Assembly: GCA_044425705.1 (NCBI GenBank) | Contig: JAWXVD010000006.1 | Coordinates: forward strand, 134-64,133 | DNA from: Eubacteriales bacterium | Lineage (GTDB): Bacteria > Bacillota > Clostridia > Lachnospirales > Lachnospiraceae | Direction: 5' to 3' | Length of the DNA: 64,000 nucleotides | Part shown: positions 3,628-62,852 of the stretch, piece after piece | Layout: every line of letters starts with the position of its first letter | How positions within the stretch are numbered: the stretch's first letter is position 1 | The notes under the pieces: generated by a model | The model's input: only the letters and a program-made list of their open reading frames with translations | What the model was told of the DNA's origin: nothing | Database searches by the model: none | Position numbers and translations under genes: made by a program

Positions 3628-6600
3628 ATGTTTGACAATAAAAATAGATTTGTAATAGAAAACTTTAATAAAAATTCCACTTTTTCTAGTTTTTTACCTG
3701 GGATTAGTGGAGAATATGGAATTCCCATGTGGTGCTTTTATGTAAATAGAGGACAAGCGGTAACTAGCTTTGGTATCGAGAATAAAAATCACTCTATTAT
3801 GGAATTTTATCCAGCCCATCAAGCATATCAAATCACTAAGAATATGGGATTCCGTACTTTTCTTAAAATTGATGGAAAATTTTACGAACCATTTCGCAGC
3901 GATGAAGCAAATACGAAGATGTATATTGGTATGAATGAATTGGAAATTGAAGAATGTAATGAAGAATTAGGATTTCAAATCAATGTTCGTTACTTTACCT
4001 TACCAAATGAGAACTTGGGTGGATTAACAAGAATTATTACAATTAAAAATACAACAAATGAGTCACACAGATTTGAAGTAATGGATGGAATGCCAGCAAT
4101 CATTCCTTACGGTATGGAACTTGATAATTTAAAAGAAATGGCACAAACCATGAAAGCATGGATGCAGGTAGAAGATGTTGAAACCAAGGTGCCATATTAT
4201 CGTGTTAGATTCAGTACAAAAGATAGTGCCCAAGTTTCAAAAATTGATGGTGGTAATTTTATGATATCTGTATCAGACGATGGAACCAAATTGCCAATTA
4301 TCGGTGATGCAGAATTAGTATTCGATTATGACACAGCCTTTGAAAAACCAGTTAGATTTATTGATACAGATGTAAATGACCTATGTTTAGAAAAACAAAT
4401 CGTGCAAAATCAAGTACCTTCTGGATTTGCCTGTGTAGCAAAAACAATTTCTAGTGATGAAACAGCCCAAATATATACAGTGATTGGGCAAGGTGCAAAT
4501 AAAGAATTAGTGAAGAATTTTGCTGATAAACAACTGGGAAAAGATTTTTTTGAGAAAAAATATGAAGAAGCATTATGTTTGACAACAGAATTAGGAGAAA
4601 TGATTGAAACAAAATCTAATAATCCTGTGTTTGACGCATATTGTAAACAAACATATTTAGACAATGTATTACGTGGTGGTTTTCCAACACCAGTAGGAAA
4701 AGATAAAATATTCTATTTATATTCTAGAAAACATGGTGATATCGAAAGGGATTATAATTTCTTTTCGATGTTACCTGAATATTTCTCACAAGGAAATGGC
4801 AATTTTAGAGATGTAAACCAAAATAGAAGAAGTGATGTGCTATTTACACCATTTGTAAAAGATTATAACATCAAAGTGTTCTATAATTTGATTCAATTAG
4901 ATGGTTATAACCCGTTATCGGTAAAACAAGTTAGCTATGTTGCAGAAAATAAGGAAGTGATTTTAGAGCAAGTTATAGGAGATAGAAGTGGATTAGAAAA
5001 ATTCCTAGAGCGTGAATTTTCACCAGGCAAATTATTTTACTATTTATCAGAAAATAAAATCACCTTGAAATGTGGTCAAGAAGAGTTTTTGGAACTTGTT
5101 ATGAACCATAGTAAAGAACAATTAAATGCTGATTTCTCAGAAGGGTATTGGACAGATCATTGGACTTATAATTTAGATCTAGTAGAGACATTTATTTCAA
5201 TTTATCCTGAGCTAGAGAAAAAATTGTTGTTTGAGGATGAGAGCTATACTTATTTTGAATCGAAAGCGGTTGTGAATCCTAGAATCAAGCGTTATGTAAA
5301 AACCGAGCAAGGGATGAGACAATATCATGCAGTGAATGAAGAATTAAAAGAAAATGTTGCCCATACAGAAGCCAGAACAAAATATGGGAAAGGTGAGGTA
5401 TATTATACTAACTTAATGACAAAATTACTTGTTCTTGCAGCCAATAAATTCACGGCTGTTGATATGCAAGGTATGGGAATTGAAATGGAAGGTGGAAAAC
5501 CAGGCTGGTATGATGCATTAAATGGTCTTCCGGGAATTTTTGGTTCTAGTATGTCAGAAACTTATGAAGTACAAAGAATGCTCCGATTTATCATAAAAGC
5601 ATTTGAAAAATATCAAGTGGAAACGAAGGTATCAAAAGAATTATATCAATTCCTTGAGACTATTGGCAATACTATGGAAAGTTACAATCAAGATAATTTA
5701 TATGTATGGAATCATTTGAACATGGCTAAGGAAATGTATCGTGAAGAAACAACTTGGGGAGTTGATGGAGAAGAAATCATTGTAAAACCAGAAAAAATCT
5801 TACCAATTTTAACACAGTGTAGCGATTACTTAGCAGATGGTATTAAAAAAGCATGTAAGATGAAAAATGGGATTGCTCCTACTTATTTTTCTTATAGTTT
5901 TTCAGATTTTGATGTTGTTGGCAGTCAGATTGTACCAAAGGACTTACAAATCGTTGAATTGCCACTATTCTTAGAAGGACCAGTGAGATACTATAAATTA
6001 TTAGAAACACAAGAAGAGAAGAAAGCTTTATATACAGCCGTAAAAGAAAGTGATTTATATGATGATAAATTGCATATGTATAAAGTGAATGCTTCTTTAG
6101 AAGATGCACCATATGAAGTAGGTAGAGCAAAAGCATTCTCACCAGGTTGGTTAGAAAATGAATCTATTTGGTTACATATGGAGTATAAATACTTATTAGA
6201 ATTATTAAAAAGTGATTTATATGAAGAGTTTTTTGAAGCCTTTGAAAAAGCTGCAGTTCCATTCTTAGATGAAAAAGTGTATGGAAGAAGTTCCTTGGAA
6301 AATTCATCATTTATTGTAAGCAGTGCTAATAGCAATAAGAAATTACATGGAAAAGGATTTGTTGCTAGATTAAGTGGATCAACCGCAGAGTTTTTACAAA
6401 TTTGGCATATGATGATGTTTGGAAAACAAATGTTTAGCATGGAAAACAATGAACTAGTTGTTTCATTTAATCCTGCCATTCCTAAAAATTTGTTGACAAG
6501 CGAAAATCAAATCACATGTACTTTGTTTGGAAATACAGAAGTTACTTATCATGTAAAAAATAGAACAAATGTGATTCCCAATGAAATAGTAATTGATAAA

Positions 6601-15040: not shown

Positions 15041-16372
15041 ATGAAAAGACGTTTTTTAAGTGTTTTATTAGCAGCAACAATGGTAGCAAGTTTATTTTCA
15101 GGATGTGGAATTACAACTACAGATTCTACAACTGAGGTAGCAGAAGAGGTAGTAGAAGAAGCAGTAGTGGAAGAAGTGGCAGAAGAAGCAGTGGAAGAAG
15201 CTTCTGAAGGAGAACAAATTACACTTACATACATGGGTTGGTTAGATAATAATGAAGATGCACTTCGTGCAGTAGCTGATTTATATGAAGCAGCAAATCC
15301 TAATGTAACTATTGAAATTGAATTATTAGAATCAGATCAATACGAAACAGTATACATGGCTCGTATGGCTTCTGGAGAAGCAGCAGACTTAATGTCTATT
15401 CGTTATCAAGCAGCAGATAAAGAAAATTATGCAGCTGGTGATTATGTAGTAGATTTAAGTGGAGAAGTTGCTTGTTCTTACATGAATGAAGGTTTAGATC
15501 AAATCAATGCTTATGAAGGTGTGATTCAAGGTCTTCCAGTAGCGGCTGACTGTTGGGGTGTTTGGTATAACGAAGATATCTTGGCTGAATTAGGATTAGA
15601 AATTCCTTCTACAATCGGTGAATTTATGGATGCTTGTCAAGCTGCTAAAGATGCAGGTTATACACCAATTGCTAACGGTTTACAAGATGGATGGACAGCT
15701 TGGATGACATTATGGACATTATGGGGCAAAGCTGGTGAAGAAGATATTACATTATTCGAAAACTTCCAAGTTGGCGATGCTACACTTTCTGATGTAGAAG
15801 CAGTAGCTTGGGCTTATGAACAAGCGAAAGAATATTATGACTTAGGATACTATCCTGACAATGTACTTGGTACATCACAAGACAGTGCAGTAGAAATGTG
15901 GTATAACGGAGAAGCTCTTTTCTGTCCTAACGGAACATTCTTCTTACCAGAAGTTGAAGCAGCAAATCCAGATTTCTCATATGGATTCATGAAACAACCA
16001 TACAATGAAGAAGAACAAGATGATATCTGTGCACAAGGTGGATTTACATTCTCTATCGCAGCATATAAAGGTGGAGCAAATGAAGAAGCAGCAGTTGACT
16101 TTATCAATTTCTTCTTTACACCAGAAAACTATCAAGTATATGTTGACGTATCAGAAACAATTGGAACTACTGTACAAGGAACATCAGGTGGTGATTCAGA
16201 TGCAGCCTTAGATATCAATGCAGCAATCACATCTATGAATGCTAACTTACATCCAGGTGATGCACAACAAGTTGCATTAGACGGATTAGCAGCAGTATTC
16301 GCAGGCGTTATGACTCCAGAAGAAGTAGTAGCAGAAATGGATCAAGAATTATTGAATTCTTTAACAAAATAA
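15041..16372 (+). CDS. Sugar ABC transporter substrate-binding lipoprotein
   Basis: Lipobox LFSGC, acidic (EEAVV)n linker, SBP family 1 length; followed by two permeases and xylosidases. Confidence 0.85.
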   Translation: MKRRFLSVLLAATMVASLFSGCGITTTDSTTEVAEEVVEEAVVEEVAEEAVEEASEGEQITLTYMGWLDNNEDALRAVADLYEAANPNVTIEIELLESDQYETVYMARMASGEAADLMSIRYQAADKENYAAGDYVVDLSGEVACSYMNEGLDQINAYEGVIQGLPVAADCWGVWYNEDILAELGLEIPSTIGEFMDACQAAKDAGYTPIANGLQDGWTAWMTLWTLWGKAGEEDITLFENFQVGDATLSDVEAVAWAYEQAKEYYDLGYYPDNVLGTSQDSAVEMWYNGEALFCPNGTFFLPEVEAANPDFSYGFMKQPYNEEEQDDICAQGGFTFSIAAYKGGANEEAAVDFINFFFTPENYQVYVDVSETIGTTVQGTSGGDSDAALDINAAITSMNANLHPGDAQQVALDGLAAVFAGVMTPEEVVAEMDQELLNSLTK

Positions 16373-16388
16373 TTTAGATTTGAAAAAA

Positions 16389-16416
16389 GGGAAATCCAAT
16401 CCTTGGATTTCCCTTT
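16389..16416 (+). terminator. Intra-operon hairpin after SBP gene
   Basis: 11-bp perfect stem GGGAAATCCAA / TTGGATTTCCC with a 3-nt loop and a short T tract. Confidence 0.4.
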
Positions 16417-16438
16417 AAAAAATTGAGAAGAAGGATAG

Positions 16439-21604: not shown

Positions 21605-22885
21605 CTAATTAATAAATAATTTTTCTAAATCTTGATAAAAATTAGGATAGCTAATTGTTACACAATCAAAACCTGTAATTTCGGTTTCTCCATCTGCCTG
21701 TAATCCAGCAATGGCAAAGCTCATGGCAATACGATGGTCTAGTTTAGAATCAATCACTGCTCCATGAAGAGGCACATCACCATTGATAATCATTCCATCA
21801 TCGGTACCTGTAATATCTCCACCCATAGCAGACAAATTATCCACCATCACGTCAATTCGGTTACTTTCTTTTACCTTTAATTCAGCAGCATCTTTAATAA
21901 TAGTTTGACCTTTGGCAAAAGCAGCCATAATTGCTATAATTGGTAGCTCATCAATTAAAGTTGGAATGATGTCTCCTTCTATTGTAATTCCATGAAGTGA
22001 ACTTGAACGAATCAATAAATCAGCAGTAGGTTCACCTTGATCTCTAGATTCATTTAATAAGGAAATATCCCCGCCCATAGCTTTCGCTACACGTATGATA
22101 CCATCTCTAGTAGGATTGATTCCCACATTTGTCAATACTATTTCAGAATTTGGTACGATAAGTCCAGCAGCGATAAAATAAGCAGCCGATGAAATATCTC
22201 CTGGTACAGCTAGCTTTCGACCTTCTAAATATGGATTAGGTGTGATAGTGGCTGTTGTGCCTACAGTTGTTACGTTGGCACCAAAAAAGTTTAACATAAT
22301 TTCAGAGTGATTTCGGCTAATTGCAGGTTCTGTTACAGAAGTATCACCATCAGCATAAAGACCAGCCAATAAGATAGCAGATTTTACCTGAGCAGAAGCA
22401 ACTTTTGATACATGGTGAATACTTTGTAAAGGACCACCGACAATACGAAGTGGTGCACATCCATTTCCGTGAATACTCTCTATAGAAGCGCCCATGCTTG
22501 AAAGAGGATCTATGATTCGCTTCATAGGTCTAGTTTGAATAGACTCATCACCAGTTAAAGTAGTTGTAAATGGTTGGGCTACTAAAATACCAGAAATTAA
22601 TCTTGTAGTTGTTCCGCTATTGCCAGCATCTAACATAGAGCTTGGAGCTTGCAATCCATGTAAACCTAAACCATGAATGGATACATTTGTTCCCTTATGT
22701 TCTATTTGAATACCTAATTTGCGAAAACAATTAATCGTAGAGATGCAATCGGCACCAGGTAGAAAATTTGTTACTTCTGTAAGTCCTTTTGACAAAGCGC
22801 CAAACATGATGGAACGATGGGAAATTGATTTGTCACCTGGTATAGAAACGGTACCAGACAGACCGTTAATTTTATTAAATTTCAT
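21605..22885 (-). CDS. aroA: 3-phosphoshikimate 1-carboxyvinyltransferase (EPSP synthase)
   Basis: GTVSIPGDKSISHRS, NSGTTTRL and other class II EPSPS motifs; start at MKFNK (CAT 22883-22885) with GGAGG SD. The longer ORF extension runs into a repeat element. Confidence 0.9.
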   Translation of the reverse strand: MKFNKINGLSGTVSIPGDKSISHRSIMFGALSKGLTEVTNFLPGADCISTINCFRKLGIQIEHKGTNVSIHGLGLHGLQAPSSMLDAGNSGTTTRLISGILVAQPFTTTLTGDESIQTRPMKRIIDPLSSMGASIESIHGNGCAPLRIVGGPLQSIHHVSKVASAQVKSAILLAGLYADGDTSVTEPAISRNHSEIMLNFFGANVTTVGTTATITPNPYLEGRKLAVPGDISSAAYFIAAGLIVPNSEIVLTNVGINPTRDGIIRVAKAMGGDISLLNESRDQGEPTADLLIRSSSLHGITIEGDIIPTLIDELPIIAIMAAFAKGQTIIKDAAELKVKESNRIDVMVDNLSAMGGDITGTDDGMIINGDVPLHGAVIDSKLDHRIAMSFAIAGLQADGETEITGFDCVTISYPNFYQDLEKLFIN

Positions 22886-22915
22886 AGATTCCTCCAATTT
22901 TAAAGCGTTTACATT

Positions 22916-22987
22916 TTTAAGTCCAGTGATTTCACTTGCTTGCAAGGGTGAAATCACAGACGCTGAGGGTGAAAATTTATTTGCACC
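22916..22987 (-). repeat. Double-hairpin interspersed repeat, type 1, copy A
   Basis: The reverse complement matches the copies at 30602, 54207 and 54457: GTGMAAATAAATTTTCAC...GTGATTTCACCCTTGCAAGCAAGTGAAATCACTGGACTTAAA. Confidence 0.8.
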
Positions 22988-23275
22988 TTTTCAACTTTCT
23001 TATTATAGAAATATAACATTGTGGTGTATGAAAGTCAATTCTGCAAAATAAGCCTAGCTAGTTACTTTTACGGCATAGCACCTCCACACTACGTGCGTGT
23101 GTAAAAAGTAACGGAAAAGTAAATGTATATAAAAATACTTGTACAAAATGTAGGAAAATGCTTGTAAAACTATTTGAAATTTAGTAATATAGACACATGG
23201 TATATTTGTAAAGAAAAAATAAAAATTATGAAAAATACATTTTACCTAATAAACATGAAAATTGGAGGAAACTAT

Positions 23276-25508: not shown

Positions 25509-25835
25509 ATGGAACAAAAAATATTAAATGAATTAGTTAATGGTATATTGAGAATTATGCAACCTTCTGTAATGCAAATTATTCTTTACGGTTCTGTTGC
25601 AAGAGGTACTAATACAGATGCCTCAGATGTTGATATTGCTCTCATGGTTACAAACGCTCTTGATAAAAGCACAGAGGATTTATTATCTGATTTTGTTGTA
25701 GATATGAATCTCAAATACGATAAAGTGTTTTCTGTAATTGACATTGATTATGACAATTTCCGAAAATGGGAAGGTGTTACTCCATTTTATCAAAATGTAA
25801 CAAAGGAGGGAATCGTCCTATGGAAGGCAGTATAA
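25509..25835 (+). CDS. Nucleotidyltransferase-domain protein (MNT-type antitoxin), module 1
   Basis: LYGSVARGTNTDASDVDIA minimal nucleotidyltransferase motif; 3' end overlaps a HEPN-like reading frame. Confidence 0.8.
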   Translation: MEQKILNELVNGILRIMQPSVMQIILYGSVARGTNTDASDVDIALMVTNALDKSTEDLLSDFVVDMNLKYDKVFSVIDIDYDNFRKWEGVTPFYQNVTKEGIVLWKAV

Positions 25836-26347: not shown

Positions 26348-26680
26348 ATGAATAATAGAGAACAATTACTTAAAGATTTTACAAAAGAAGTGCAATTAGC
26401 AATGGGGGATGTGATTAATAAAATTATTTTGTATGGTTCTTATGCAAGAGGGGATTTTCATGTAAATTCAGATATTGATATTATGATTCTCACCTCGCTA
26501 ACTGAAGATAAGATAAAAAATATAGAAGATCAGGTATATGACATAGCATTTGAATATCAAATGTCGGATGCAATTACGATTAGTGTGAATATCAAAAATA
26601 CAGAACAGTATTATTATTGGTTGGGAGCATTGCCTTATTATGATAATATTGAAAGGGAGGGAATTGTACTTGCAGGATGA
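26348..26680 (+). CDS. Nucleotidyltransferase-domain protein (MNT-type antitoxin), module 2
   Basis: LYGSYARGDFHVNSDIDIM motif; overlaps the downstream HEPN gene. Confidence 0.85.
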   Translation: MNNREQLLKDFTKEVQLAMGDVINKIILYGSYARGDFHVNSDIDIMILTSLTEDKIKNIEDQVYDIAFEYQMSDAITISVNIKNTEQYYYWLGALPYYDNIEREGIVLAG

Positions 26681-27065
26681 GAGAAAAAAGACATTGTGCC
26701 AATATCGTTTAAATAATGCAGAAGAAACATATACTGTTGCTCAGGATTGTTTTAAGGGAATGCATTTTAAGGACTGTGTAAATCGTTCTTATTATGCTGT
26801 GTTTTATGCGTTAAAAGCAGTATTAGCCCTAGAGGGAGTAGATTTTAAACGTCACAAAGATGTAGTTGCATATTTTAATCGACATTATGTTGCAGCTGAT
26901 GTATTTAAAAGAGATTATGGTAGAAAAATAGCTAAATTGCAACAGATACGCGAAAAAAGTGATTACGATGATTTTTATATCACGTCCAGTGAAGAAGCAG
27001 AAATGCAATTAGAAAATACTAGAGAAATTATAGATGCTATAACAATATATTTAAATCTTTTATAG
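26670..27065 (+). CDS. HEPN-domain protein (toxin partner of MNT), module 2
   Basis: HEPN-like helices with ...IREKSDYDD motif; probable TTG start at 26670, 9 nt after AGGGAGG, overlapping the MNT stop. Confidence 0.8.
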   Translation: MQDERKKTLCQYRLNNAEETYTVAQDCFKGMHFKDCVNRSYYAVFYALKAVLALEGVDFKRHKDVVAYFNRHYVAADVFKRDYGRKIAKLQQIREKSDYDDFYITSSEEAEMQLENTREIIDAITIYLNLL

Positions 27066-28699: not shown

Positions 28700-29979
28700 T
28701 GACTACAAAAACAAATGCTAGGGTTGAAGTTTATGTGAATAAAAATCAGAAAAAAATGCGTTGTGGCATGACTACTGGCAGCTGCTGTAGCATTGCAGCA
28801 AAGGCGGCAACGAAAAAATTATTGTTAGGAATTGATGTTACACAAGAGACTATTATGACACCAAAGGGAATCAGTATTTCAGTACCAGTAAATCTTGTAG
28901 AGATTGCGCAGGAGGAAGTGATTGCCCAAGTGTTTAAAGATAGTGGAGATGATCCAGATGTGACAAATGGAATGGAAGTGTTAGTTGCTGTTAGTTATTT
29001 GAATGATGAAGATGAATCTAATGTGTCAGCAATGGATTTGAATGAATCAATAGATTCTAAAGGGTTAGAGCAATCTGAGACTAGTAAAAATAAGTTATAT
29101 TTTGCAGATTCAGAATTTCCAAATATTTACCTAGATGGTGGTATTGGTGTGGGTAGAATTACAAAAGAAGGACTGGAGCAAAAGATTGGATTTGCTGCAA
29201 TTAACAAAGTACCCAGAAGAATGATTATGTCTCATGTCAAAGAAATTATGGATATAGCAGACATATCCAAGCCGATACTTGTGACTATTATTTTTCCAGA
29301 GGGTGCCAAGTTAGCGAAAAGAACATTTAATCCTCAACTTGGAATTGTAGATGGAATTTCTGTATTAGGAACAAGCGGTATTGTGGAACCTATGAGTGAG
29401 AAAGCTTTGATAGATACTATTGAGGTAGAAATCAAGCAAAAACAAGCTGAAGGAATGAAAAATATTATTCTGATGCCTGGAAATTATGGACAGACTTATG
29501 TGCAAGAGGAGTTACAATTATCGCTACAGAAAAGCGTAAAGTGTAGTAATTATGTAGGGGAATCTATCGATTTGTGCATCAGCTATGGCATGGAACATGT
29601 ACTATTAGTTGGAAATATGGGGAAATTCGTAAAGTTAGCAGCAGGAATTATGAATACACATTCTAAAGTGGCTGATGGAAGAATGGAAATTTTAGCATTG
29701 CATACATATTTGTGTGGTGGTACAAAAGAAGATGTGGACTTTATTTTACAATCTATTAACACGGAAGGTGTTGTGGCATATTTAAAAGACCATGATTTGT
29801 TAACAGTTGTGATGGATAGTATTTGTCAAAAAATAGAACAACATGTTAAGAGAAGAGCTGGTGATTGTTTGAAAATTGGAGTTTATGTTTTTTCTGAAAA
29901 TCATCACTTAATTGGTAAAACTAGTGATGCCGATACAATTAAAGATTTAATAATCGGGGAAGATAAGATGAGGTTATGA
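28699..29979 (+). CDS. cbiD: Cobalt-precorrin-5B (C1)-methyltransferase
   Basis: MRCGMTTGSCC N-terminal signature, GGIGVGRITKEGL, ILGTSGIVEPMS motifs; contains an acidic/Ser-rich segment around residues 100-135. Confidence 0.85.
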   Translation: MTTKTNARVEVYVNKNQKKMRCGMTTGSCCSIAAKAATKKLLLGIDVTQETIMTPKGISISVPVNLVEIAQEEVIAQVFKDSGDDPDVTNGMEVLVAVSYLNDEDESNVSAMDLNESIDSKGLEQSETSKNKLYFADSEFPNIYLDGGIGVGRITKEGLEQKIGFAAINKVPRRMIMSHVKEIMDIADISKPILVTIIFPEGAKLAKRTFNPQLGIVDGISVLGTSGIVEPMSEKALIDTIEVEIKQKQAEGMKNIILMPGNYGQTYVQEELQLSLQKSVKCSNYVGESIDLCISYGMEHVLLVGNMGKFVKLAAGIMNTHSKVADGRMEILALHTYLCGGTKEDVDFILQSINTEGVVAYLKDHDLLTVVMDSICQKIEQHVKRRAGDCLKIGVYVFSENHHLIGKTSDADTIKDLIIGEDKMRL

Positions 29980-31136
29980 TAATGAAAGCAATCATGTTTG
30001 CCTTTAGCAAGTATGGCTATGAATTGAGTCATAAAATTGAAAAGGAATTATCAAAGGAGCCTGTTACTTTAATCAAAGCGGTAAAGGGAATATGGGTAGA
30101 TGATATCGTAATAAGCGAAAATCTTGTTTCTTTGAACAAGCGAGATACAAAAGAATTTTTAAAGGAAGAAATAAAAGATACATCTGTGATTATTTTTATC
30201 GGAGCCTGTGGTATTGCAGTGCGATTGATGGCACCTTTTTTAATCAGTAAGAAAATTGACCCAGCTGTATTGGTTTTAGATGATGAAGGGAATTTTTGTA
30301 TTTCTCTTGTTTCAGGACATTTAGGTGGTGCTAATGAATGGACAAACAAGATTGCGGCTATGGTAGATGCGATACCTGTGATCACTACATCAACAGATAT
30401 TCATGAAGTGTTTGCAGTAGATGTCTTTGCGAAAAAGAATCATTTATATATAGAAGATATGACATTGGCAAAGGAAATTTCGGCAACACTATTACAGGGT
30501 AATTCAGTGGGAATTTATTCAGATATTTCTATTAAAGATGAAATCGATAAGAAATTAACCATAGTTGGTGATAAAGAATGTCAAAAACAAGGTGAGGTAA
30601 AGAGTGAAAATAAATTTTCACCTTCAGCGCCTGAGATTTCACCCATGCAAGCACGTGAAATCACTGGACTTAAATATGGGATTGTGATTGGCAGAGATAA
30701 AAAAAGTATTTTTCCAAAATCACTTTATTTATATCCGAAATCATTTGTACTAGGAATTGGCTGTAGAAAAGGTACTAGTGAAGTACAAATTGAAGAGGGA
30801 ATTTTTACTTTTTTAAAAAATAAAAATATTAGTATCCAAGAAATTGGGAAGCTAGGTAGTATTGATTTGAAAAAGGAAGAAGAAGGAATTCTTTCCTTTT
30901 CAAAAAAATATGAAATACCCTTTTCTGTATTTTCTAAGGAAGAATTAGAACAAGCAGATGGTGATTTTATAGAGTCTTCCTTTGTAAGTGGAGTAACAGG
31001 TGTTGGAAATGTGTGTGAAAGAAGTGCAAGCTTACTGGGGAATGGTAAGATTATTCATAAAAAAGAGATTGTAAATGGAATTACATTGTCCGTTGGGGAA
31101 ATGGATTGTGAAATTTGGTTTGAAAGAAATGATTAA
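29976..31136 (+). CDS. cbiG: Cobalt-precorrin-5A hydrolase
   Basis: CbiG N domain (IFIGACGIAVRLMAP...VSGHLGGAN) and C domain (LGIGCRKG...IDLKKEE); the ORF is continuous through a repeat element at 30602-30676. Confidence 0.8.
   Translation: MIMKAIMFAFSKYGYELSHKIEKELSKEPVTLIKAVKGIWVDDIVISENLVSLNKRDTKEFLKEEIKDTSVIIFIGACGIAVRLMAPFLISKKIDPAVLVLDDEGNFCISLVSGHLGGANEWTNKIAAMVDAIPVITTSTDIHEVFAVDVFAKKNHLYIEDMTLAKEISATLLQGNSVGIYSDISIKDEIDKKLTIVGDKECQKQGEVKSENKFSPSAPEISPMQAREITGLKYGIVIGRDKKSIFPKSLYLYPKSFVLGIGCRKGTSEVQIEEGIFTFLKNKNISIQEIGKLGSIDLKKEEEGILSFSKKYEIPFSVFSKEELEQADGDFIESSFVSGVTGVGNVCERSASLLGNGKIIHKKEIVNGITLSVGEMDCEIWFERND
30602..30676 (+). repeat. Double-hairpin interspersed repeat, type 1, copy B (inside cbiG, in-frame)
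   Basis: GAGTGAAAATAAATTTTCACCTTCAGCGCCTGAGATTTCACCCATGCAAGCACGTGAAATCACTGGACTTAAATAT aligns with copies A, C and D. Confidence 0.8.
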
Positions 31137-34743: not shown

Positions 34744-34790
34744 GGATATTTTTGGGAACGATGTCAGCTAGTAGGTTAATTTGTATTTTA

Positions 34791-34822
34791 CGGTGCAAAG
34801 TTACCAAGCTGAGAGAAAGGTG
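34791..34822 (+). repeat. Partial copy of type 2 repeat 3' module
   Basis: CGGTGCAAAGTTACCAAGCTGAGAGAAAGGTG matches the 3' part of the element at 57001-57070 and the motif at 63777-63803. Confidence 0.4.
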
Positions 34823-34833
34823 TGGTTATTAAA

Positions 34834-37810: not shown

Positions 37811-38571
37811 TTGTTAAAAGCAGTTGGTCGTATCTTTTTGGTATTAATTGGAATTAGTTTTATTAGTTTTTTATTGATTTATATGTCACCAGGTGATCCT
37901 GTTCGCGCTATGTTTGCGGTTAGTGGAAATATTCCAGCTGAAGAGGTATTAGAGGAAATGAGGGAAGAGTTGGGGTTGAATCGCCCGTTTCTCGTACAAT
38001 ATGGTGATTGGTTATTGTCTTGTTTTTGTTTAGACTTTGGAACATCCTATTCTACTGGAGAACCAGTCCTTGCTTTATTAATTGCAAGACTTTGGCCTAC
38101 CCTAAAGATTACAGGACTATCGCTGCTGTTTATGACTATCTTAGCGATACCGTTAGGCTTGGCATCAGCCCTACATCCTAATTCATGGCTGGAAAATATG
38201 CAAGGCAGATACGTGGGTTGGTGTTAGAAGAGTTAACACAGGATTATTTGATTGGTGCTAGGGCAAGAGGAATCAGGGAAAGAACTATCATTTGGAAACA
38301 TGTGATTCCCAATGCAGTATTACCGTTAATTACTATGTTTGGTTTATCCATAGGTTCTTTACTTGGTGGAACGGCAGTAGTAGAAATCATTTTTTCTTAC
38401 CCAGCATTAGGATCCTTGGCATTGAGTGCTATTACAGCAATGGACTATCCATTGATTCAAGGATATGTGCTGTGGGTTGCACTGATTTATATGGTGGTCA
38501 ATTTAACTGTGGATGCCTCCTATAAAAGGTTGGATCCTAGAATTGCAAAAGGAGTAGAGGGCAATGAATAA
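37811..38571 (+). pseudogene. OppB/DppB-type peptide/nickel ABC permease remnant (internal deletion + frameshift)
   Basis: N-terminal 125 residues (MLKAVGRIFLVLIGISFISFLLIYMSPGDPV...) and a C-terminal ~100 residues (..LEELTQDYLIGARARGIRERTIIWKHVIPNAVLP..YKRLDPRI) lie in different frames, with the middle of the protein missing. Confidence 0.7.
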
Positions 38572-39018
38572 AGTAATGAGAAGATTTTATATATCTTGCT
38601 TCTTTGTGATATTATGGTTTCCTTTCCAGGAATGGCATTAGCAATTGCCGTATGCGGGATGTTGGGAGCAGGTATTATGAATGCAGTCATTGCAATCACT
38701 GCTGTAAGTTTTACAAAATATGCAAGATTATCAAGAAGTTCACAAGGAGAAGTGCCAAGTGCCACAAACCTACCCAAAGGATGCCCGTTTGCGTCTAGGT
38801 GTAGTGAGTGCATTGAAATTTGTAAAAATGAAATACCTAAAATGAAAGAGGTAGCTGAAAGACATCAAGTGGCTTGTCATTTGTTTTCTGGAGCAAATCA
38901 AATCTATGCTGAAGCAGGAGCAAATCCTCGTGACGCTGCAGAAAACACGGAAACTAGTAGAGGGTTTAGTGTGAAAATGGCAAAAGAAATGCTAAAGGAT
39001 GCAGAGTGGGAAGTATAA
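38564..39018 (+). pseudogene. Chimeric remnant of oppC, an opp ATPase C-terminus and an SBP fragment
   Basis: OppC-like start MNKVMRRFY, OppC core fragment GMALAIAVCGMLGAG..FTKYARLSRS, ATPase C-terminal fragment PKGCPFASRC..C..E.P....HQVACHLF and SBP5-like MAKEMLKDAEWE, all within 450 nt. Confidence 0.6.
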
Positions 39019-52556: not shown

Positions 52557-54170
52557 TTACTTACATCTCTCAAACAAGCTGTGCCATATCACTGGAGCAG
52601 CCCAGAAGAGAATGAGGTAATAGCGTACTAGTACGATAGGACCTAGTAGGTTTGTGACACAGAACAGTATGATGAGTCCTAGCATAACAACGTTGTGATA
52701 ACGTTTCGTTAGTATGGCGTAGGCAAAGGCAAAGAGTAGAAGCCACATATAGGCACCGATAGAAAATAAGTATTTCACAAGTAACATATCTTGAAATAAG
52801 CCATTTCTAGAAACATTCCAGAAAAAGGATGTAATTGCAGGAATGTTATTATCTGCAAAGAGAGGTGCTTCCACATCACAGGAGAAATAACAAGTTGGTG
52901 TAGTATATCGTCCTACTACACCACAATATCCATCGATTAAGGCATTCGGATACCAGGCTTCAAAGGTGTTTTCTATGGTTGCCTCGATATAGATAAGTGG
53001 CGCTTTTAGTCCCACTTTAATCCATAATTTCACAAAGTCTACAGCTGAGGCAGAGTTGCTCTTGATTTCTTGTTTTACAGGATCGGCAATTTTACCATCA
53101 TAGGCATCTATTCCAACTTTATCAATAAAATTATATAATGATTCTAGTTCTTCTGGTTCTAAAAAATCTTCCCCTTTTTCGCTGACGGTTCTTGCTAGTT
53201 GTTGTGCAGGAACAGATAACATTTCGGCAGTACTGATGTTATCAGCTGACAAGATTTGAATGAGTGCCACATTTATCATAAAAACAGCAAGAATGATGCC
53301 AATAAACGCAGAACATATTTTGATGGATTTTTTCCTGAATATGATTATAATAAACGGGATTGCGGCCATATATGCATATATCATGTTATTGCGTAGAAGT
53401 CCTGCAAGTATGCCAGTTATAATAAAACCAATCATATCTGACCCTATAGTTTCTGTATTCTCGTTGCCAATTGCTATAGATTTTTTTAGATAAATTAAAT
53501 TACAGACAAAGAAGGCTGTAAATAAACTATCCTTTGTGGTACAAAGTAAAAACATAATATTAGTTGGTAGGAGTCCGTAAAAAGCAGTAGAGATGATAAC
53601 AGATTTTGTAGACATACCCATTTCATATAAATTTTTTAATACCCATATAAAACAACTTGTAATAATTAACATTTGCAAGAAACAATAACAGAAGCCACCA
53701 AAGTTATAAGAACCAGATGCTTCGCCTATGGTAGTGATGATTTTACCCATAAAAAGAGTGTGGAGTAAAGGGTGATGGGCTGTGTAGACTCCAGTTTGTA
53801 CTTGATTTATTTGTTCATTAAAATCATAACATGCAAAGCCTGGATAGACGCCATACAATACAATTAATCCTACTATATTGAGAAAACTATAGAGGAGTAT
53901 CCAATGTATTTTTTTCAGCTGATAGGATTTTATAGATACAGGGGTGCCGTTTGTCCTGTTTAATAATAATTTGAATAATGAATATATGATAATAAAGAAT
54001 AATATAGAAGAAGTAATAATTTTTACGTATGTTTCAGAGTTATAAAAAAGAATGTGATTGTAGGTATTAATATCTTCACCTAGTACATGAGCAAAAGTGT
54101 ATATGATTGCTAATAGAGCAGAGAGAAAAATTTGTTTTCGATTGGTGTTTTTATTTTTTGTGTTTATCAT
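52557..54170 (-). CDS. Polytopic membrane protein (DUF6020-like, GT-C-type glycosyltransferase-like topology)
   Basis: More than 10 TM segments with one extracytoplasmic loop domain; the family assignment is from recollection only. Confidence 0.55.
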   Translation of the reverse strand: MINTKNKNTNRKQIFLSALLAIIYTFAHVLGEDINTYNHILFYNSETYVKIITSSILFFIIIYSLFKLLLNRTNGTPVSIKSYQLKKIHWILLYSFLNIVGLIVLYGVYPGFACYDFNEQINQVQTGVYTAHHPLLHTLFMGKIITTIGEASGSYNFGGFCYCFLQMLIITSCFIWVLKNLYEMGMSTKSVIISTAFYGLLPTNIMFLLCTTKDSLFTAFFVCNLIYLKKSIAIGNENTETIGSDMIGFIITGILAGLLRNNMIYAYMAAIPFIIIIFRKKSIKICSAFIGIILAVFMINVALIQILSADNISTAEMLSVPAQQLARTVSEKGEDFLEPEELESLYNFIDKVGIDAYDGKIADPVKQEIKSNSASAVDFVKLWIKVGLKAPLIYIEATIENTFEAWYPNALIDGYCGVVGRYTTPTCYFSCDVEAPLFADNNIPAITSFFWNVSRNGLFQDMLLVKYLFSIGAYMWLLLFAFAYAILTKRYHNVVMLGLIILFCVTNLLGPIVLVRYYLILFWAAPVIWHSLFERCK

Positions 54171-54206
54171 AAGTGTGTAATCCTTTTTCTTGTGTATTGT
54201 AATTCA

Positions 54207-54293
54207 AGGGTGAAAATAAATTTTCACTTTCGGCGTTTGTGATTTCACCCTTGCAAGCAAGTGAAATCACTGGATTTAAATATAAAAATAGTA
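54207..54293 (+). repeat. Double-hairpin interspersed repeat, type 1, copy C
   Basis: AGGGTGAAAATAAATTTTCACTTTCGGCGTTTGTGATTTCACCCTTGCAAGCAAGTGAAATCACTGGATTTAAATAT. Confidence 0.8.
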
Positions 54294-54456
54294 TAACAAA
54301 TAATAGTGTTATATTTCAATATAAATAGATTTATATTTTTAAAAATAAGGGTATTGATGTTACATTTCACGTATGAACTTGTAACTTTATGTGGATTTCA
54401 TGAATTGTAAATAGTATAATGAGTAAGAAGTTTTTGAAAATAAGGATTTTTAAATA

Positions 54457-54533
54457 AGGATGAAAATAAATTTTCATCCTCAGCGTCAGTGATTTCACCT
54501 TTGCAAGCAAGTGAAATCACTGGACTTAAATAT
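54457..54533 (+). repeat. Double-hairpin interspersed repeat, type 1, copy D
   Basis: AGGATGAAAATAAATTTTCATCCTCAGCGTCAGTGATTTCACCTTTGCAAGCAAGTGAAATCACTGGACTTAAATAT. Confidence 0.8.
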
Positions 54534-54567
54534 ATGTGTAGATAGTAAACGCGAAGGAGAATCGACA

Positions 54568-55794
54568 ATGACAGTAGCTGAAAGATTTTTAAATTATGTA
54601 GCAATTCATACAAAGAGTGATGATGATAGTACAACTGTTCCAACAACAGGGAGACAATTTGATTTAGCAAATCAATTGGTGGAGGAATTACGAGAATTAG
54701 GAGTAGAAAATGCTGTAGTGGACGAGAAGTGTTATGTATACGCATCTATTCCAGCAGCAGAAGGATTAGAGGAGCAAACCGCCATCGGTTTTATCGCGCA
54801 TATGGATACGGCACCTGATTACTCGGGTGATAAGGTAATGCCTCAAATCATTGAGCATTATGATGGAATGGATGTAAAATTAGGTGATTCGGGAAGAGTA
54901 TTGAGTAGTCAGAAATTTCCTCATTTAAAGAGATGTGTTGGGAGAACATTGATTACTACAGATGGGACTACCTTGTTAGGGGCAGACGATAAGGCTGGTA
55001 TTGCAGAGATTATGGCTTTGGTAGAAGGTATTATGACAGAAGAAATTCCTCATGGAAAAATTTGCATTGGATTCACACCAGATGAAGAAGTGGGACGAGG
55101 TGCAAATCATTTTGATGTAGAGAAGTTTGGTGCAGAACTTGCTTATACTTGTGATGGTGACGAAGAAGGATATGTGGAATTTGATAATTTTAATGCTTCC
55201 AGTGCAACAGTAGAAGTAAAAGGATTTAATGTACACCCTGGAACAGCGAAAAATACTATGGTGAATGCACTTTTAGTAGCTATGGAATTTAATCAGATGT
55301 TGCCATCAGCACAGACACCTAGAGATACAAAGGGATACGAAGGATTTTATCATCTTTGTGAAATGTCGGGTGAAATTGCAAGTGCTACAATGGAGTATAT
55401 TGTTCGTGATCATAGTGCTACAGCTTTTCAAGTGAAATTAGATACGATGAAACATATAGAAGATATTTTAAATCAAAAATATGGTGAAGGTACAGTTACC
55501 CTTACAATAGAAGAGCAATACCGCAATATGCGTGAAAAAATCGAACCACATATGCATTTGATTGAGGTTGCAAAAGAAGCCATTACAATGGCTGGAATTA
55601 CACCTAAAGAACAAGCCATTCGTGGTGGTACTGATGGCGCAAGACTATCATTTATGGGATTGCCTTGTCCAAATCTGGGAACTGGTGGTCATGCATTCCA
55701 CGGTCCATATGAACACATCACAGTAGAAGGCATGGAAAAAGCAGTGGAAATTTTAAAAAATATAGTTTTACTATATGGAAAGAAAGAAAACTAA
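54568..55794 (+). CDS. pepT: Peptidase T (tripeptide aminopeptidase)
   Basis: ERFLNYVAIHTKSDD.., HMDT, GADDKAG, TPDEE, HGPYE M20B motifs; ATG 54568 after AAGGAGA. Confidence 0.9.
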   Translation: MTVAERFLNYVAIHTKSDDDSTTVPTTGRQFDLANQLVEELRELGVENAVVDEKCYVYASIPAAEGLEEQTAIGFIAHMDTAPDYSGDKVMPQIIEHYDGMDVKLGDSGRVLSSQKFPHLKRCVGRTLITTDGTTLLGADDKAGIAEIMALVEGIMTEEIPHGKICIGFTPDEEVGRGANHFDVEKFGAELAYTCDGDEEGYVEFDNFNASSATVEVKGFNVHPGTAKNTMVNALLVAMEFNQMLPSAQTPRDTKGYEGFYHLCEMSGEIASATMEYIVRDHSATAFQVKLDTMKHIEDILNQKYGEGTVTLTIEEQYRNMREKIEPHMHLIEVAKEAITMAGITPKEQAIRGGTDGARLSFMGLPCPNLGTGGHAFHGPYEHITVEGMEKAVEILKNIVLLYGKKEN

Positions 55795-57000: not shown

Positions 57001-57070
57001 GGTGAAAATAAAATTTTCCCCACGGCAATTTGTCTCTTTCGAGCCAAAGTTGCTAGGCTGAGAGAAAGTG
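57001..57070 (+). repeat. Double-hairpin interspersed repeat, type 2 (chimeric variant)
   Basis: Shares the first hairpin GGTGAAAATAAAATTTTCC with type 1 but carries a different second hairpin TCTCTTTCGAGCC-AAAGTTGCTA-GGCTGAGAGAAAG. Confidence 0.6.
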
Positions 57071-57139
57071 ATGATTATTAGTATAAGTATGACTAGAGTG
57101 CAATAGTTATCAGTAAAATATATGAAATGGAGAAATGCT

Positions 57140-60359: not shown

Positions 60360-62852
60360 ATGAGAAACAAACTTTACAAACTAATGAACTGGCCAGCAAT
60401 TGAGGCTATTATTTACTCTGAAGAAGAAAAACCACACAATATTTTAGGGCCTCATGTTTTTGGTAGCAACTGCTTGATTCAAACATTTCAGCCAGAAGCA
60501 AAATCTGTTACACTACGTTTTTGGAAAAAGGAAAAAGAAGCAGAAGAAGAAATGATTATGATGGAAGAAGGTTTTTTTGCTATTTTAATTTCTAAGCGTA
60601 AATTTGATAAGTACGAATTTGTAGTAGCTTATGAAGAAGAAATGAAGGTGGTGCAAGATCCATATCAGTTTAAACCGATAATCACACAGAAAGATGTCGA
60701 TAAATTTGAAGCAGGTATTCATTACAATATATATGATAAATTAGGCGCACATGTAATGGAGCTGAACGGAATGAAAGGTGTTCACTTTGCAGTATGGGCA
60801 CCAAATGCTATACGTGTCAGTGTTGTAGGTGATTTTAATCAATGGGATGGTAGAATTCATCAAATGTCTCGCTTGTGGGAATCAGGAATTTTTGAGATTT
60901 TTATTCCGGGAGAGTATGTTGGAAGTAATTACAAATTCGAACTGAAATTAAAAAACGGTTTGACTTATTTAAAAGCCGATCCATATGCTTTTGGGCAACA
61001 ATTAAGACCAGATACTGCTTCTGTAGTATGTGATATAGCTACATTTGCATGGGGTGATACTTCGTGGTTACAGGAACGGAGTAAAGTAAAATGGAATAAA
61101 CAACCAATTAGTGTGTATGAAATGTACTTAGGTTCTTTTAGAAGAAAAGAAGATGGTAGCTATTATACCTATCAGGAACTAGCACCATTGGTAGTTTCTT
61201 ATGTGAAAGAAATGGGGTATACTCATGTTGAGTTAATGCCAGTTATGGAACATCCTTTTGATGCTTCTTGGGGATATCAAGTCATTGGATATTATGCACC
61301 TACTGCAAGATATGGTTCACCAGAAGAGTTTATGTTTTTTGTTGACGAATTGCATAATGCAAGCATCGGCATTATTTTAGATTGGGTACCAGCTCATTTT
61401 CCAAAAGATGACCACGGTCTTGCAAATTTTGATGGCACTTGTCTATATGAACATAAAGATCCAAGACAGGGACAACATCCTCACTGGGGGACTCTAATCT
61501 ATAATTATGGACGACCACAAGTAAGCAATTATCTACTTGCTAATGCATTGTATTGGGTAGAAAAGTATCATATTGATGGTATTCGTGTGGATGCAGTGGC
61601 ATCTATGCTTTACTTAGATTATGGAAAAAATGATGGAGAATGGGTTGCAAATATTTACGGCGGCAATGAAAATTTAGAAGCAATTGAATTCTTCAAACAT
61701 TTGAATAGCATTCTTCATAAAAGAAATAAAGGCGTTTTATCTATTGCAGAAGAATCTACTGCATGGCCTATGATTACTGGTTCTTTAAATGAGAATGGTT
61801 TGGGCTTTGATTATAAATGGAATATGGGATGGATGAACGATAATCTAGAATACATGAAATATGATCCATATTTTAGATCACATCACCATGGAGAATTAAC
61901 TTTTTCCATGATTTATGCCTATAGTGAAAAATTTATGTTAGCGTTATCTCATGATGAGGTAGTACATGGAAAAGCCACACTGCTTGGTAAAATGCCAGGA
62001 AATGATGCAGAGAAATTTGCTAATTTAAAATTATTATATACCTATATGTTTACGCATCCAGGTAAAAAATTACTATTTATGGGACAGGATATAGGAGAAT
62101 ATGATGAGTGGAATGAAATGCGTAGTGTGCAATGGGAATTAGCGGAATATGAACTTCATCAAGGAATCAATCAGTTGGTGAAAAAGTTGAATATACACTA
62201 TCAAAAATTACCAGCACTTTACGAATTAGATGAAACAGCAGATGGTTTTGAATGGATTAATTGTATTAATCATGATGAATGCACCTTAAGTTTTCTTAGA
62301 AAATCTGCATCAAAAGACGAAACATTGCTTATGGTATTTAATTTTGCTAACATGGAGAGAGATAATTATAAAGTAGGAGTACCTTTTGCAGGTAAATATA
62401 AAGAAATTCTTGCCACAGACGGAAAAGAATTTGGTGGCTCAGGAATTAAAAATATACGTGTAAAACATAGCGTAGAGGAAGAACATGATGGACGCAAAGA
62501 ATCTATTAAAATAAAATTAGCGCCATTAAGTGCTACTATATTCTCATATACTCCATTTACACCAGAAGAATTAAAGAAAATCGCTGAAAAGAAACAAGCT
62601 ACGAAAAAGAAAGTGACAACAAAAGCGAAAAAAGTTTCATTAAAAGACCAGTTGGAAGAAAAAATAAATGAGGCGGATGCAAAAATTTCGCAAGGTAGTG
62701 AAAAGAAAACCTTGTCAGAAAAGAAAATAGCACTAGAAAAGAAAACAGCACCAGAAAAGAAAACAGCACCCAAAAAGAAAACAGCACCAGAAAAGAAAAC
62801 AGCATCAAAAAAGAAGGCCGTCTCAGAGAAGAAGATAGTTGAAAAAAAGTAG
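60360..62852 (+). CDS. glgB: 1,4-alpha-glucan branching enzyme with Lys-rich repetitive C-terminal tail
   Basis: GH13_9 motifs (DWVPAHF, GIRVDAVASM, AEESTAWP, LSHDEVVHGK); ~100 extra C-terminal residues. Confidence 0.9.
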   Translation: MRNKLYKLMNWPAIEAIIYSEEEKPHNILGPHVFGSNCLIQTFQPEAKSVTLRFWKKEKEAEEEMIMMEEGFFAILISKRKFDKYEFVVAYEEEMKVVQDPYQFKPIITQKDVDKFEAGIHYNIYDKLGAHVMELNGMKGVHFAVWAPNAIRVSVVGDFNQWDGRIHQMSRLWESGIFEIFIPGEYVGSNYKFELKLKNGLTYLKADPYAFGQQLRPDTASVVCDIATFAWGDTSWLQERSKVKWNKQPISVYEMYLGSFRRKEDGSYYTYQELAPLVVSYVKEMGYTHVELMPVMEHPFDASWGYQVIGYYAPTARYGSPEEFMFFVDELHNASIGIILDWVPAHFPKDDHGLANFDGTCLYEHKDPRQGQHPHWGTLIYNYGRPQVSNYLLANALYWVEKYHIDGIRVDAVASMLYLDYGKNDGEWVANIYGGNENLEAIEFFKHLNSILHKRNKGVLSIAEESTAWPMITGSLNENGLGFDYKWNMGWMNDNLEYMKYDPYFRSHHHGELTFSMIYAYSEKFMLALSHDEVVHGKATLLGKMPGNDAEKFANLKLLYTYMFTHPGKKLLFMGQDIGEYDEWNEMRSVQWELAEYELHQGINQLVKKLNIHYQKLPALYELDETADGFEWINCINHDECTLSFLRKSASKDETLLMVFNFANMERDNYKVGVPFAGKYKEILATDGKEFGGSGIKNIRVKHSVEEEHDGRKESIKIKLAPLSATIFSYTPFTPEELKKIAEKKQATKKKVTTKAKKVSLKDQLEEKINEADAKISQGSEKKTLSEKKIALEKKTAPEKKTAPKKKTAPEKKTASKKKAVSEKKIVEKK
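62699..62842 (+). repeat. Eight tandem 18-bp coding repeats (EKKTAP-like hexapeptides)
   Basis: GAAAAGAAAACAGCACCA-type units head to tail at the 3' end of glgB. Confidence 0.8.

Follow-up and report, generated by a model that had tools for sequence, protein, structure and literature searches.

A likely mobile structured repeat of Lachnospiraceae and related Clostridia, with one copy inserted in frame in cbiG

[quoted passage not shown] The same source singles out the Rickettsia palindromic elements (RPEs) for the exceptional frequency with which they occur in frame. As a class, structured repeats have a precedent in Clostridia, since stem-loop repeat families were found in Clostridium perfringens and C. 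tetani in an earlier survey (PMC2267715). The subject of the present study is a short repeat with two hairpins, four copies of which are situated in a 64,000-nt stretch of DNA from a member of the Lachnospiraceae (contig JAWXVD010000006.1; hereafter the window), one of them inside cbiG, the gene for cobalt-precorrin-5A hydrolase. The data presented here make it likely that this repeat is a small mobile DNA element (71–75 nt) that is non-autonomous and occurs widely among Lachnospiraceae and related Clostridia. No description of the family was found in Rfam or in the literature searched; it is apparently undescribed, and is kin to small non-autonomous structured repeats.

An initial annotation of the window had proposed an interspersed palindromic repeat at four or more sites. 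This is supported by the present analysis, in which four copies (A to D, Table 1) were identified, with limits that agree with the earlier ones to within a few bases. The copies represent one element, with pairwise identities of 87–91% over 78–83 nt, and the element proper is 72 nt in each. A pattern for hairpin 2, with up to three mismatches allowed, matched the window four times, as against 0.00 matches expected from 100 dinucleotide-preserving shuffles. The corresponding search with hairpin 1 returned the same four sites and one unrelated partial match at 57001. The element consists of a hairpin 1 that is specific to the lineage, a short linker and a hairpin 2 that is almost invariant, GTGATTTCAC-CCTTGCAAGCAA-GTGAAATCAC (i.e. 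GTGATTTCAC-CC-TTG-CAAG-CAA-GTGAAATCAC), which is closed by a covarying stem of 4–5 bp. The termini of the element, AAGRGTGAAA... and ...CACTGGACTT, do not form an inverted pair; the palindromes are internal. The motif AAAWATR is found directly 3′ of every window copy.

Both of the hairpins originally noted are real, but not all copies are as regular as was thought: the 10-bp arm of hairpin 2 is imperfect in copy B (GAGATTTCAC / GTGAAATCAC), and in hairpin 1 there is one mismatch in copy A and a compensatory A-T pair in copy D (ATGAAAA / TTTTCAT). RNA folding gave clearly better results for copies A, C and D than for shuffled sequences (z –3.4, –2.7 and –5.6, respectively), copy D having the strongest fold of the four (–28.7 kcal/mol). 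Copy B has the weakest (z –1.67), and its best fold is one without hairpin 2. A weak model match at 16352–16433 of the window was rejected as an ordinary terminator-like hairpin. A promoter inside the element was also considered and rejected; the loop TTGCAA is 19–21 nt from the –10-like flank, and thus out of range, and the promoter scanner calls none convincingly.

The product of cbiG was matched by Pfam CbiG_N, CbiG_mid and CbiG_C (E values of 1e–31, 2e–9 and 2e–30), and a copy of the repeat does reside within the uninterrupted cbiG reading frame; the CbiG_mid match spans 109 residues for a profile of 88 positions. Copy B starts exactly at codon 209, after V208, and its 24 codons (residues 209–232; insert-encoded peptide ...ISPMQAREITGL) are followed by the native K-Y-G-I. 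The homolog search, from which the best 120 of 5146 matches were listed, provided 19 sequences for alignment, and the nearest other CbiG among the matches listed is only 56% identical. The element peptide is absent from all 19 aligned homologs, gaps in each of the 19 face 15 of the element-encoded residues, and the region of the insert varies in length across the family. A peptide of 25 residues had been ascribed to the repeat. That stretch takes in the K-Y after the element, which is concluded to be native, its Y aligning with the QYGI of the nearest homolog (P0002); the element accounts for 24 aa.

It might be argued that this segment is native to cbiG and resembles the intergenic repeats by coincidence, or because the relation runs in reverse, the more so as the linker is length-variable and extra residues would be unremarkable there. 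However, copy B is 87–89% identical in DNA sequence, over ~79 nt, to the three non-coding window copies, the same element is present in non-coding DNA of dozens of other genomes, and the peptide is in none of the aligned homologs. The DNA-level identity refutes a native origin, to which we attach next to no probability, and it is because of this identity that all four stretches are assigned to the same repeat. On the basis of these comparisons, the cbiG copy is a true in-frame insertion, as had been proposed, which adds 24 aa and leaves the ORF intact.

A solved CbiG structure (PDB 3eeq) aligns on either side of the insert segment and not across it. In an AlphaFold2 model of the protein, built with a 20-sequence alignment, the mean pLDDT (predicted local distance difference test) is 86; it is below 50 at residues 204–219 and ~60 at 221–230, and recovers from 231. 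The low values around the insert suggest, therefore, that it probably lies in a flexible linker between the middle and C-terminal domains. Among 41 distinct aligned copies, copy B alone has non-pairs at alignment columns 41/71 and 53/62, which are T-A in the other 40, and its apical stem is changed as well. Three substitutions (V→E, L→M and S→R) affect positions of hairpin 2 that are invariant in the family. Judged by these changes, copy B looks like an old copy, or one freed from the constraint that keeps hairpin 2 elsewhere.

The boundaries of copy B were placed by comparison with empty and filled sites at other loci. One of these is a metagenomic locus (L079), where a BlaR1/M56 gene of 595 aa carries a sense-oriented copy that is read in the cbiG frame (..ISPLQASEI..). 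When 14 homologs are aligned with it, the BlaR1 insert is a unique block in an otherwise ungapped and conserved cytoplasmic region, and deletion of exactly 25 aa (75 nt, AGG...GTT) restores a gapless alignment, with EWLQEH-KI-KRKIQIR at the junction versus xWLxEH-PL-RRxVQIR in the homologs. Hairpin 2 is intact in this copy, unlike in copy B. The second comparison is provided by Blautia-type loci, in which the gene for a large serine recombinase has a single copy upstream of it. For homologs of this recombinase at 69–78% identity, the upstream region is the same but lacks the element; the empty loci read GGCAACAT/AATAATGATACTC and the filled ones GGTAACAT/(71 nt)/TATAATGACACTC. The filled locus, the promoter of an integrative mobilisable element (IME), is a clean 71-nt insertion, and TATAATG is native to it. 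Same-species empty alleles for CbiG or BlaR1 were not found in the collections, where the nearest relatives are 56% and ~45% identical, respectively.

No target-site duplication was observed in either of the two empty/filled comparisons (71-nt and 75-nt insertions), and in both of them the 3′ end of the element is 7 nt past hairpin 2. The possibility that the A/T-rich tail AAATATG belongs to the element is ruled out by both empty-site reconstructions; the tail is target DNA. At 39 distinct sites the 3′ flank is conserved as A35 A35 W W A29 T29 G23/A13 (AAWWATR), which resembles a –10 box, and the 5′ flank shows almost no conservation. These results show that insertion is precise, free of duplication and in one orientation, directly 5′ of AAWWATR, and that the motif is kept intact. 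Such precise, duplication-free and target-specific insertion points to a mobile element of a kind other than that of Rickettsia.

The location of the Blautia-type copies raises the question of whether hairpin 2 is an attachment or recombination site of large serine recombinases, with the dispersed copies as their targets. In the single-copy genomes the copy is ~500–650 nt upstream of a large serine recombinase gene, and this is so for two different element families, one member of which (L045) is a circular 11.6-kb mobilisable element. However, the homologs at 69–78% identity have the same small upstream ORF and no copy, the filled loci are explained by a clean 71-nt insertion upstream, the homology breakpoints between related loci do not fall at the hairpin, and the copies in multi-copy genomes are not near recombinases. 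The copy-free homologs and the clean insertion largely refute the attachment-site explanation, which we regard as very improbable. The L045 contig (1–11761; ~11.64 kb when circularized, with an exact terminal overlap of 123 nt) has genes for a large serine recombinase (674 aa) and for two proteins that resemble a primase and a Mob relaxase. It is thus either a plasmid or a small integrative/mobilisable element, and the hairpin element is carried in it as a passenger of 71 nt, inserted ahead of the recombinase operon; mobilisable elements of this type could ferry the repeat between genera.

Since the target survives insertion, it can be reused, and this accounts for head-to-tail arrays with a period equal to the element length, such as the one in L051 (about 870–1090; period 71 nt). 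Related units that recur head to tail every 63, 68 and 71 nt were observed in L025 (1321–1560), L006 (3191–3341) and L051. Three of the L025 units have a variant hairpin, GATTCGCC-CTTC-CGGCGAATC, in which nothing of hairpin 2 but its GATT/AATC base is preserved; the last unit of that array has the canonical hairpin.

An exact-pattern scan (one genome per species) located 39 instances of hairpin 2. At least 14 copies are present in the complete Anaeromicropila herbilytica genome, and the other hosts include Blautia caecimuris, Lacrimispora, Anaerobium, Lachnotalea, Roseburia and many metagenome-assembled genomes of Lachnospiraceae. A metagenome scan, in which the five bases GATTT of the 5′ arm were left free in the pattern, yielded 39 true hairpin-2 sites, and GATTT was present in 36 of them. 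Positions that were free in the first scan pattern are likewise invariant across copies, and for this reason the conservation of hairpin 2, its loop included, is no artefact of the search. By contrast with hairpin 2, for which identity is 0.94–0.98 within and 0.89–0.95 between genomes, hairpin 1 and the linker are 0.77–0.90 identical within a genome and only 0.42–0.63 between genomes; the stem flanking hairpin 2 is also variable between lineages, yet homogeneous inside one genome. Because hairpin 1 and the linker are homogeneous within genomes and divergent between them, the pattern is that of an element that has multiplied separately in each genome while a single module was held under strong constraint.

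Element length differs by subfamily, being 71 nt in Blautia, 72 nt in the genome of the window and 75 nt in the BlaR1 copy. There is also a looser group ('class 2') that has hairpin 2 in common and a different 5′ hairpin, in some cases in tandem arrays. A stretch of ~380 nt that is non-coding but conserved lies downstream of the class-2 hairpin (L027, ~3985–4320; L001, ~2260–2600). This region is common to loci with and without the serine recombinase, opens with AAACAAATGTTC, which resembles a LexA box, and was matched by no Rfam family; it may represent a regulatory region or an RNA that has escaped annotation. Searches in other collections were negative. There was no Rfam match at the gathering score in the window or in five related loci, and a scan of 54150–54600 at E values up to 10 gave only chance-level matches. 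A blast search with the consensus found no match among PLSDB plasmids and INPHARED phages. The four IMG/VR matches all proved to be one chance match in a coding region that lacks the 5′ arm, and L070 of the metagenome scan is that same chance match. The metagenome scan with a hairpin-1 pattern of the window type gave 0 matches, so that no close relative of the window genome's subfamily was recovered, and the hairpin is absent from the first 200 of 408 supplementary files of a catalogue of structured RNAs from the human microbiome.

A covariance model was made from 28 copies with a structure that we specified, and 42 copies were realigned to it. In the resulting alignment, 91% of cells are paired, and the covariation score is 0.236, compared with 0.103 in column shuffles (0 of 500 reach 0.236) and at most 0.064 when partners are slid by 1–3 columns. 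Changes on both sides were observed in 7 of the 10 pairs of hairpin 1, and the closing stem around hairpin 2 has pair counts of GC 23, CG 10 and AU 2. On the gene-sense strand, G.T pairs outnumber A.C pairs by 44 to 20, an excess that lends weak support to folding of that strand.

Table 1. Positions of the repeat copies, their target motifs and associated genes in the window
Feature	Position	Strand	Remarks
Copy A	22919–22990	–	72 nt, 5′ leader of aroA; R1 score 83.5 bits
Copy A target motif AAAAATG	22912–22918	–	
Copy B	30600–30671	+	72 nt inside cbiG, codons 209–232 (KSENKFSPSAPEISPMQAREITGL); R1 score 75 bits
Copy B hairpin 1	30600–30624	+	
Copy B degraded hairpin 2	30633–30664	+	
Copy B 3′ target motif AAATATG, retained	30672–30678	+	Codes native K-Y of KYGIVI
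Copy C	54206–54277	+	72 nt, intergenic; R1 score 84.8 bits
Copy C 3′ motif AAATATA	54278–54284	+	
Copy D	54456–54527	+	72 nt; R1 score 88.9 bits
Copy D 3′ motif AAATATA	54528–54534	+	
cbiG (cobalt-precorrin-5A hydrolase)	29976–31136	+	Intact, uninterrupted 386-aa ORF hosting copy B
aroA (EPSP synthase), downstream of copy A	21605–22888	–	Pfam EPSP_synthase, E 8e–123
M20-family peptidase (pepT-like) gene, downstream of copies C and D	54568–55794	+	Pfam Peptidase_M20, M20_dimer

Of the copies situated between co-directional genes (n=23), 18 are in sense and 5 in antisense orientation, and about half of all copies are within ~50 nt of the downstream start codon, often right after the stop codon of the upstream gene. 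In the window, the aroA ATG (at 22888) is 31 nt downstream of the last base of copy A (22919), and 41 nt separate copy D from the ATG of the M20 peptidase gene; copy C is 250 nt upstream of copy D. A promoter scan identified a strong promoter-like site (23038→23010) that ends ~19 nt upstream of copy A. The downstream genes are diverse (recO, ddl, luxS, rplM and genes for thioredoxin, phosphoglycerate mutase, transporters and regulators), and a common or riboswitch-like regulon is ruled out, since these genes are unrelated.

A transcribed functional RNA module, i.e. a 5′-leader or intercistronic stabilizer or a conserved site for an RNA-binding protein, for which mobility would be secondary, offers a different explanation of this placement. 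It would account for the sense bias, which includes both coding copies, and for the proximity to start codons; copy A begins ~10–15 nt past a strong promoter-like site, where the aroA leader has its 5′ end. The excess of G.T over A.C pairs, the presence of a UUCG-type loop in related array units, and the fact that the loop sequence of hairpin 2 is kept, and not merely its pairing, are further points in its favour. On the other hand, the downstream genes share no common function and no Rfam family is matched, an oriented –10-like target may equally yield both the sense bias and the gene proximity, the sense orientation is indistinguishable from leading-strand gene bias, and the homogeneity of hairpin 1 within a genome is that of a recent amplification and not of an old regulon. 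We consider a primary RNA function to be the less probable explanation, albeit one of some weight. The –10-like target and the sense bias may leave room for insertion linked to transcription or for a role at the RNA level.

The frame used in cbiG was said to be open in all four window copies, and this was confirmed. A reverse frame had been reported as open in copies A and D only; over the aligned core, none of the four closes it. Of 39 distinct copies, 28 have the cbiG frame open and 11 have stops in it; TGA in the GTGA arms closes both remaining sense frames in almost every copy, and one antisense frame is open in 21. Coding copies represent 2 of about 50 distinct sites (~4%). The initial annotation took stop-free residence in frame as a hallmark of elements of the RPE type. 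It is apparent that this does not hold for the family, in which only those two sites are coding, 11 of 39 copies have stops, the length is not always a multiple of three and the usual location is intergenic, in sense orientation and shortly before a start codon.

There is a real likeness to RPEs, in that a palindromic repeat is able to sit in frame and to add a peptide at a tolerant site, probably on the surface or in a linker. However, RPEs are ~100–150 bp, about twice the 71–75 nt of the present element; a large share of RPE copies is resident in ORFs (PMC10969869), as opposed to the ~4% found here; the open frame of the present element is incidental; and the host lineage is different. A selfish element of RPE type, adapted to genes and with its length and one frame selected to remain open, would be favoured by the two independent insertions in the same frame (..ISPLQASEI..) in unrelated proteins and organisms, and by the divisibility by three of both subfamilies involved (72 and 75 nt). 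Against this stand the rarity of coding sites, the stops in the frame and the 71-nt length of the Blautia subfamily. In addition, the TGA codons of the GTGA arms shut the other sense frames, so that the pattern follows from the sequence, and selection purges frame-breaking insertions, so that the survivors are necessarily in frame. Such adaptation is improbable in our estimation. The open frame and the length of 3n are incidental properties of some subfamilies that let rare insertions survive, and not an adaptation.

The mechanism that we propose for a mobile element is as follows. The element inserts precisely 5′ of an A/T-rich –10-like motif, in one orientation and with the motif left intact, and repeated use of the target would give rise to head-to-tail arrays. 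Most copies would come to lie, sense-oriented, in the A/T-rich spacers a short way upstream of genes. A member of the 72-nt subfamily, with one stop-free sense frame, landed between V208 and K209 of cbiG, where it was tolerated because of its length of 72 nt, its stop-free sense frame and the length-variable, probably disordered linker. Hairpin 2 would be the probable recognition site of an enzyme acting in trans. By analogy, a single-strand HUH/Y1 transposase (IS200/IS605-like) is the most likely candidate for this enzyme, although the assignment is tentative. Y1 HUH transposases recognize subterminal hairpins and select a short target by base pairing (PMC3201880, PMC5934647), and TnpA proteins of the IS200 type are strongly represented in Clostridia (PMC6006769).

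The ends of IS200/IS605 elements and their gene-less derivatives of the PATE type resemble the present element in several respects: there are hairpins at both ends, insertion is precise, without duplication, beside a short specific sequence and in a fixed orientation, the target is retained so that tandem re-insertion is possible, and the enzyme class is abundant in Clostridia. The present element differs from them in being far smaller, in having two unlike hairpins, whose feet are 0 and 7 nt from the ends rather than 10–19 nt, and in having a conserved flank of 6–7 nt (AAWWATR) on the 3′ side in the gene-sense orientation.

Several observations weigh against mobilization of this kind, or against parts of the argument for it. 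A Pfam scan of ten small ORFs of the window, out of its 67 ORFs of ≥100 aa, found no transposase. In the 671 kb around more than 80 copies, no cognate insertion sequence or tnpA was found, there being no Y1-transposase match to an approximate IS200 TnpA query (tblastn; best E value 0.067). No gene was found between inverted copies in the 90 sequences examined, the window included. The geometry of IS608 is different, given the unlike hairpins and the 3′ position of the conserved flank. The invariance of hairpin 2 could reflect a host function at the RNA level and not recognition by a transposase. The structural alignment was fitted to our own model, which inflates the pairing counts, and the empty site in cbiG is deduced by analogy, there being no relative closer than 56% identity. 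Finally, three of the window copies are on one strand and copy A is on the other, within one replichore (GC skew between +0.18 and +0.29 over the whole window), which misfits a strict lagging-strand rule.

A further elaboration is that of a new kind of promoter-proximal mobile module. The enzyme, acting in trans on the invariant hairpin 2 that it recognizes, would place the element at the upstream border of a –10-like AAWWAT, perhaps in DNA melted by RNA polymerase; once transcribed, the hairpins would act on mRNA stability or translation, and small integrative mobilisable elements would ferry the repeat between genera. Insertion at the –10-like AAWWAT would explain the sense orientation and the position ahead of genes. 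This scheme as a whole is speculative, and we consider it unlikely.

Other families of small repeats were compared with the present element. The REP/BIME/REPIN sequences of proteobacteria, with their RAYT (TnpA-REP) enzymes, are also short, structured, multi-copy extragenic palindromes, sometimes in arrays and co-transcribed with neighbouring genes, and are presumed to be mobilized in trans by a single domesticated enzyme. The present element, however, has no GTAG head, has two unlike hairpins in a fixed order, and is mostly 5′ of genes and not 3′; TnpA-REP classes are not reported for Clostridia (PMC6006769), and no copy-flanked RAYT-like gene was found in the 90 sequences. BOX, RUP and SPRITE of Streptococcus pneumoniae, ERIC and classical MITEs are likewise small structured intergenic repeats of operon spacers that are occasionally intragenic and then produce fusions in frame (PMC10969869). 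Inverted repeats at the termini and target duplications (e.g. TA) characterize classical MITEs; neither was found in the present element, its ends not being inverted repeats and both empty/filled comparisons lacking a duplication. An invariant hairpin beside a variable one, termini that are not inverted, the lack of a duplication and a 3′ AAWWATR target make up an unusual combination.

Lachnospiraceae are among the most abundant bacteria of the human and animal gut, and the repeat family marks a mobilization system that is active in them or was so recently. With a well-defined recognition hairpin and a clear target motif, the enzyme is directly testable. The elements occasionally remodel proteins, as in CbiG (+24 aa) and in the BlaR1-type sensor (+25 aa in a conserved cytoplasmic region), the latter being a clean natural case of peptide gain via mobile DNA outside Rickettsia. 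The family is a potential marker for strain typing and also an annotation hazard, as a source of false N-terminal extensions and of spurious ORFs across arrays. Open frames through elements were seen to give rise to spurious N-terminal extensions or false ORFs in L038 (6164–6949, oriented coordinates) and in the arrays of L025 and L004; one example, MRLAISLACKGEIAERI..., is situated ahead of a response-regulator gene.

Several other features of the window were noted. An unrelated 54-nt direct repeat (76% identical), with the box CUGAGAGAAAG, occurs at 34778–34831 and 57027–57080 on the plus strand. Each copy is just upstream of a gene start, as a 5′ leader common to both genes or a riboswitch-like motif would be, and neither is matched in Rfam; a hairpin at 57001–57020 that resembles hairpin 1, without hairpin 2, precedes the second. 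Rfam gave no match at the gathering score anywhere in the window (1–64000), and no cobalamin riboswitch was detected near the cbi/cob cluster either. At 37811–39018 (plus strand), three short consecutive ORFs match pieces of BPD_transp_1_N, BPD_transp_1 and oligo_HPY, and look like a frameshifted or decayed operon for an oligopeptide ABC transporter of the opp type. ORFs for a nucleotidyltransferase (Polbeta/NTP_transf_2; 25509–25835) and a HEPN-domain protein (26640–27065), both on the plus strand, are near one another, as in MNT-HEPN toxin–antitoxin pairs. Lastly, an 18-nt tandem repeat, GAAAAGAAAACAGCACCA, of 6–7 units at 62586–62843 (plus strand) lies within the 3′ end of an 830-aa ORF (60360–62852), in which it codes for a lysine-rich repeat of the EKKTAP type.

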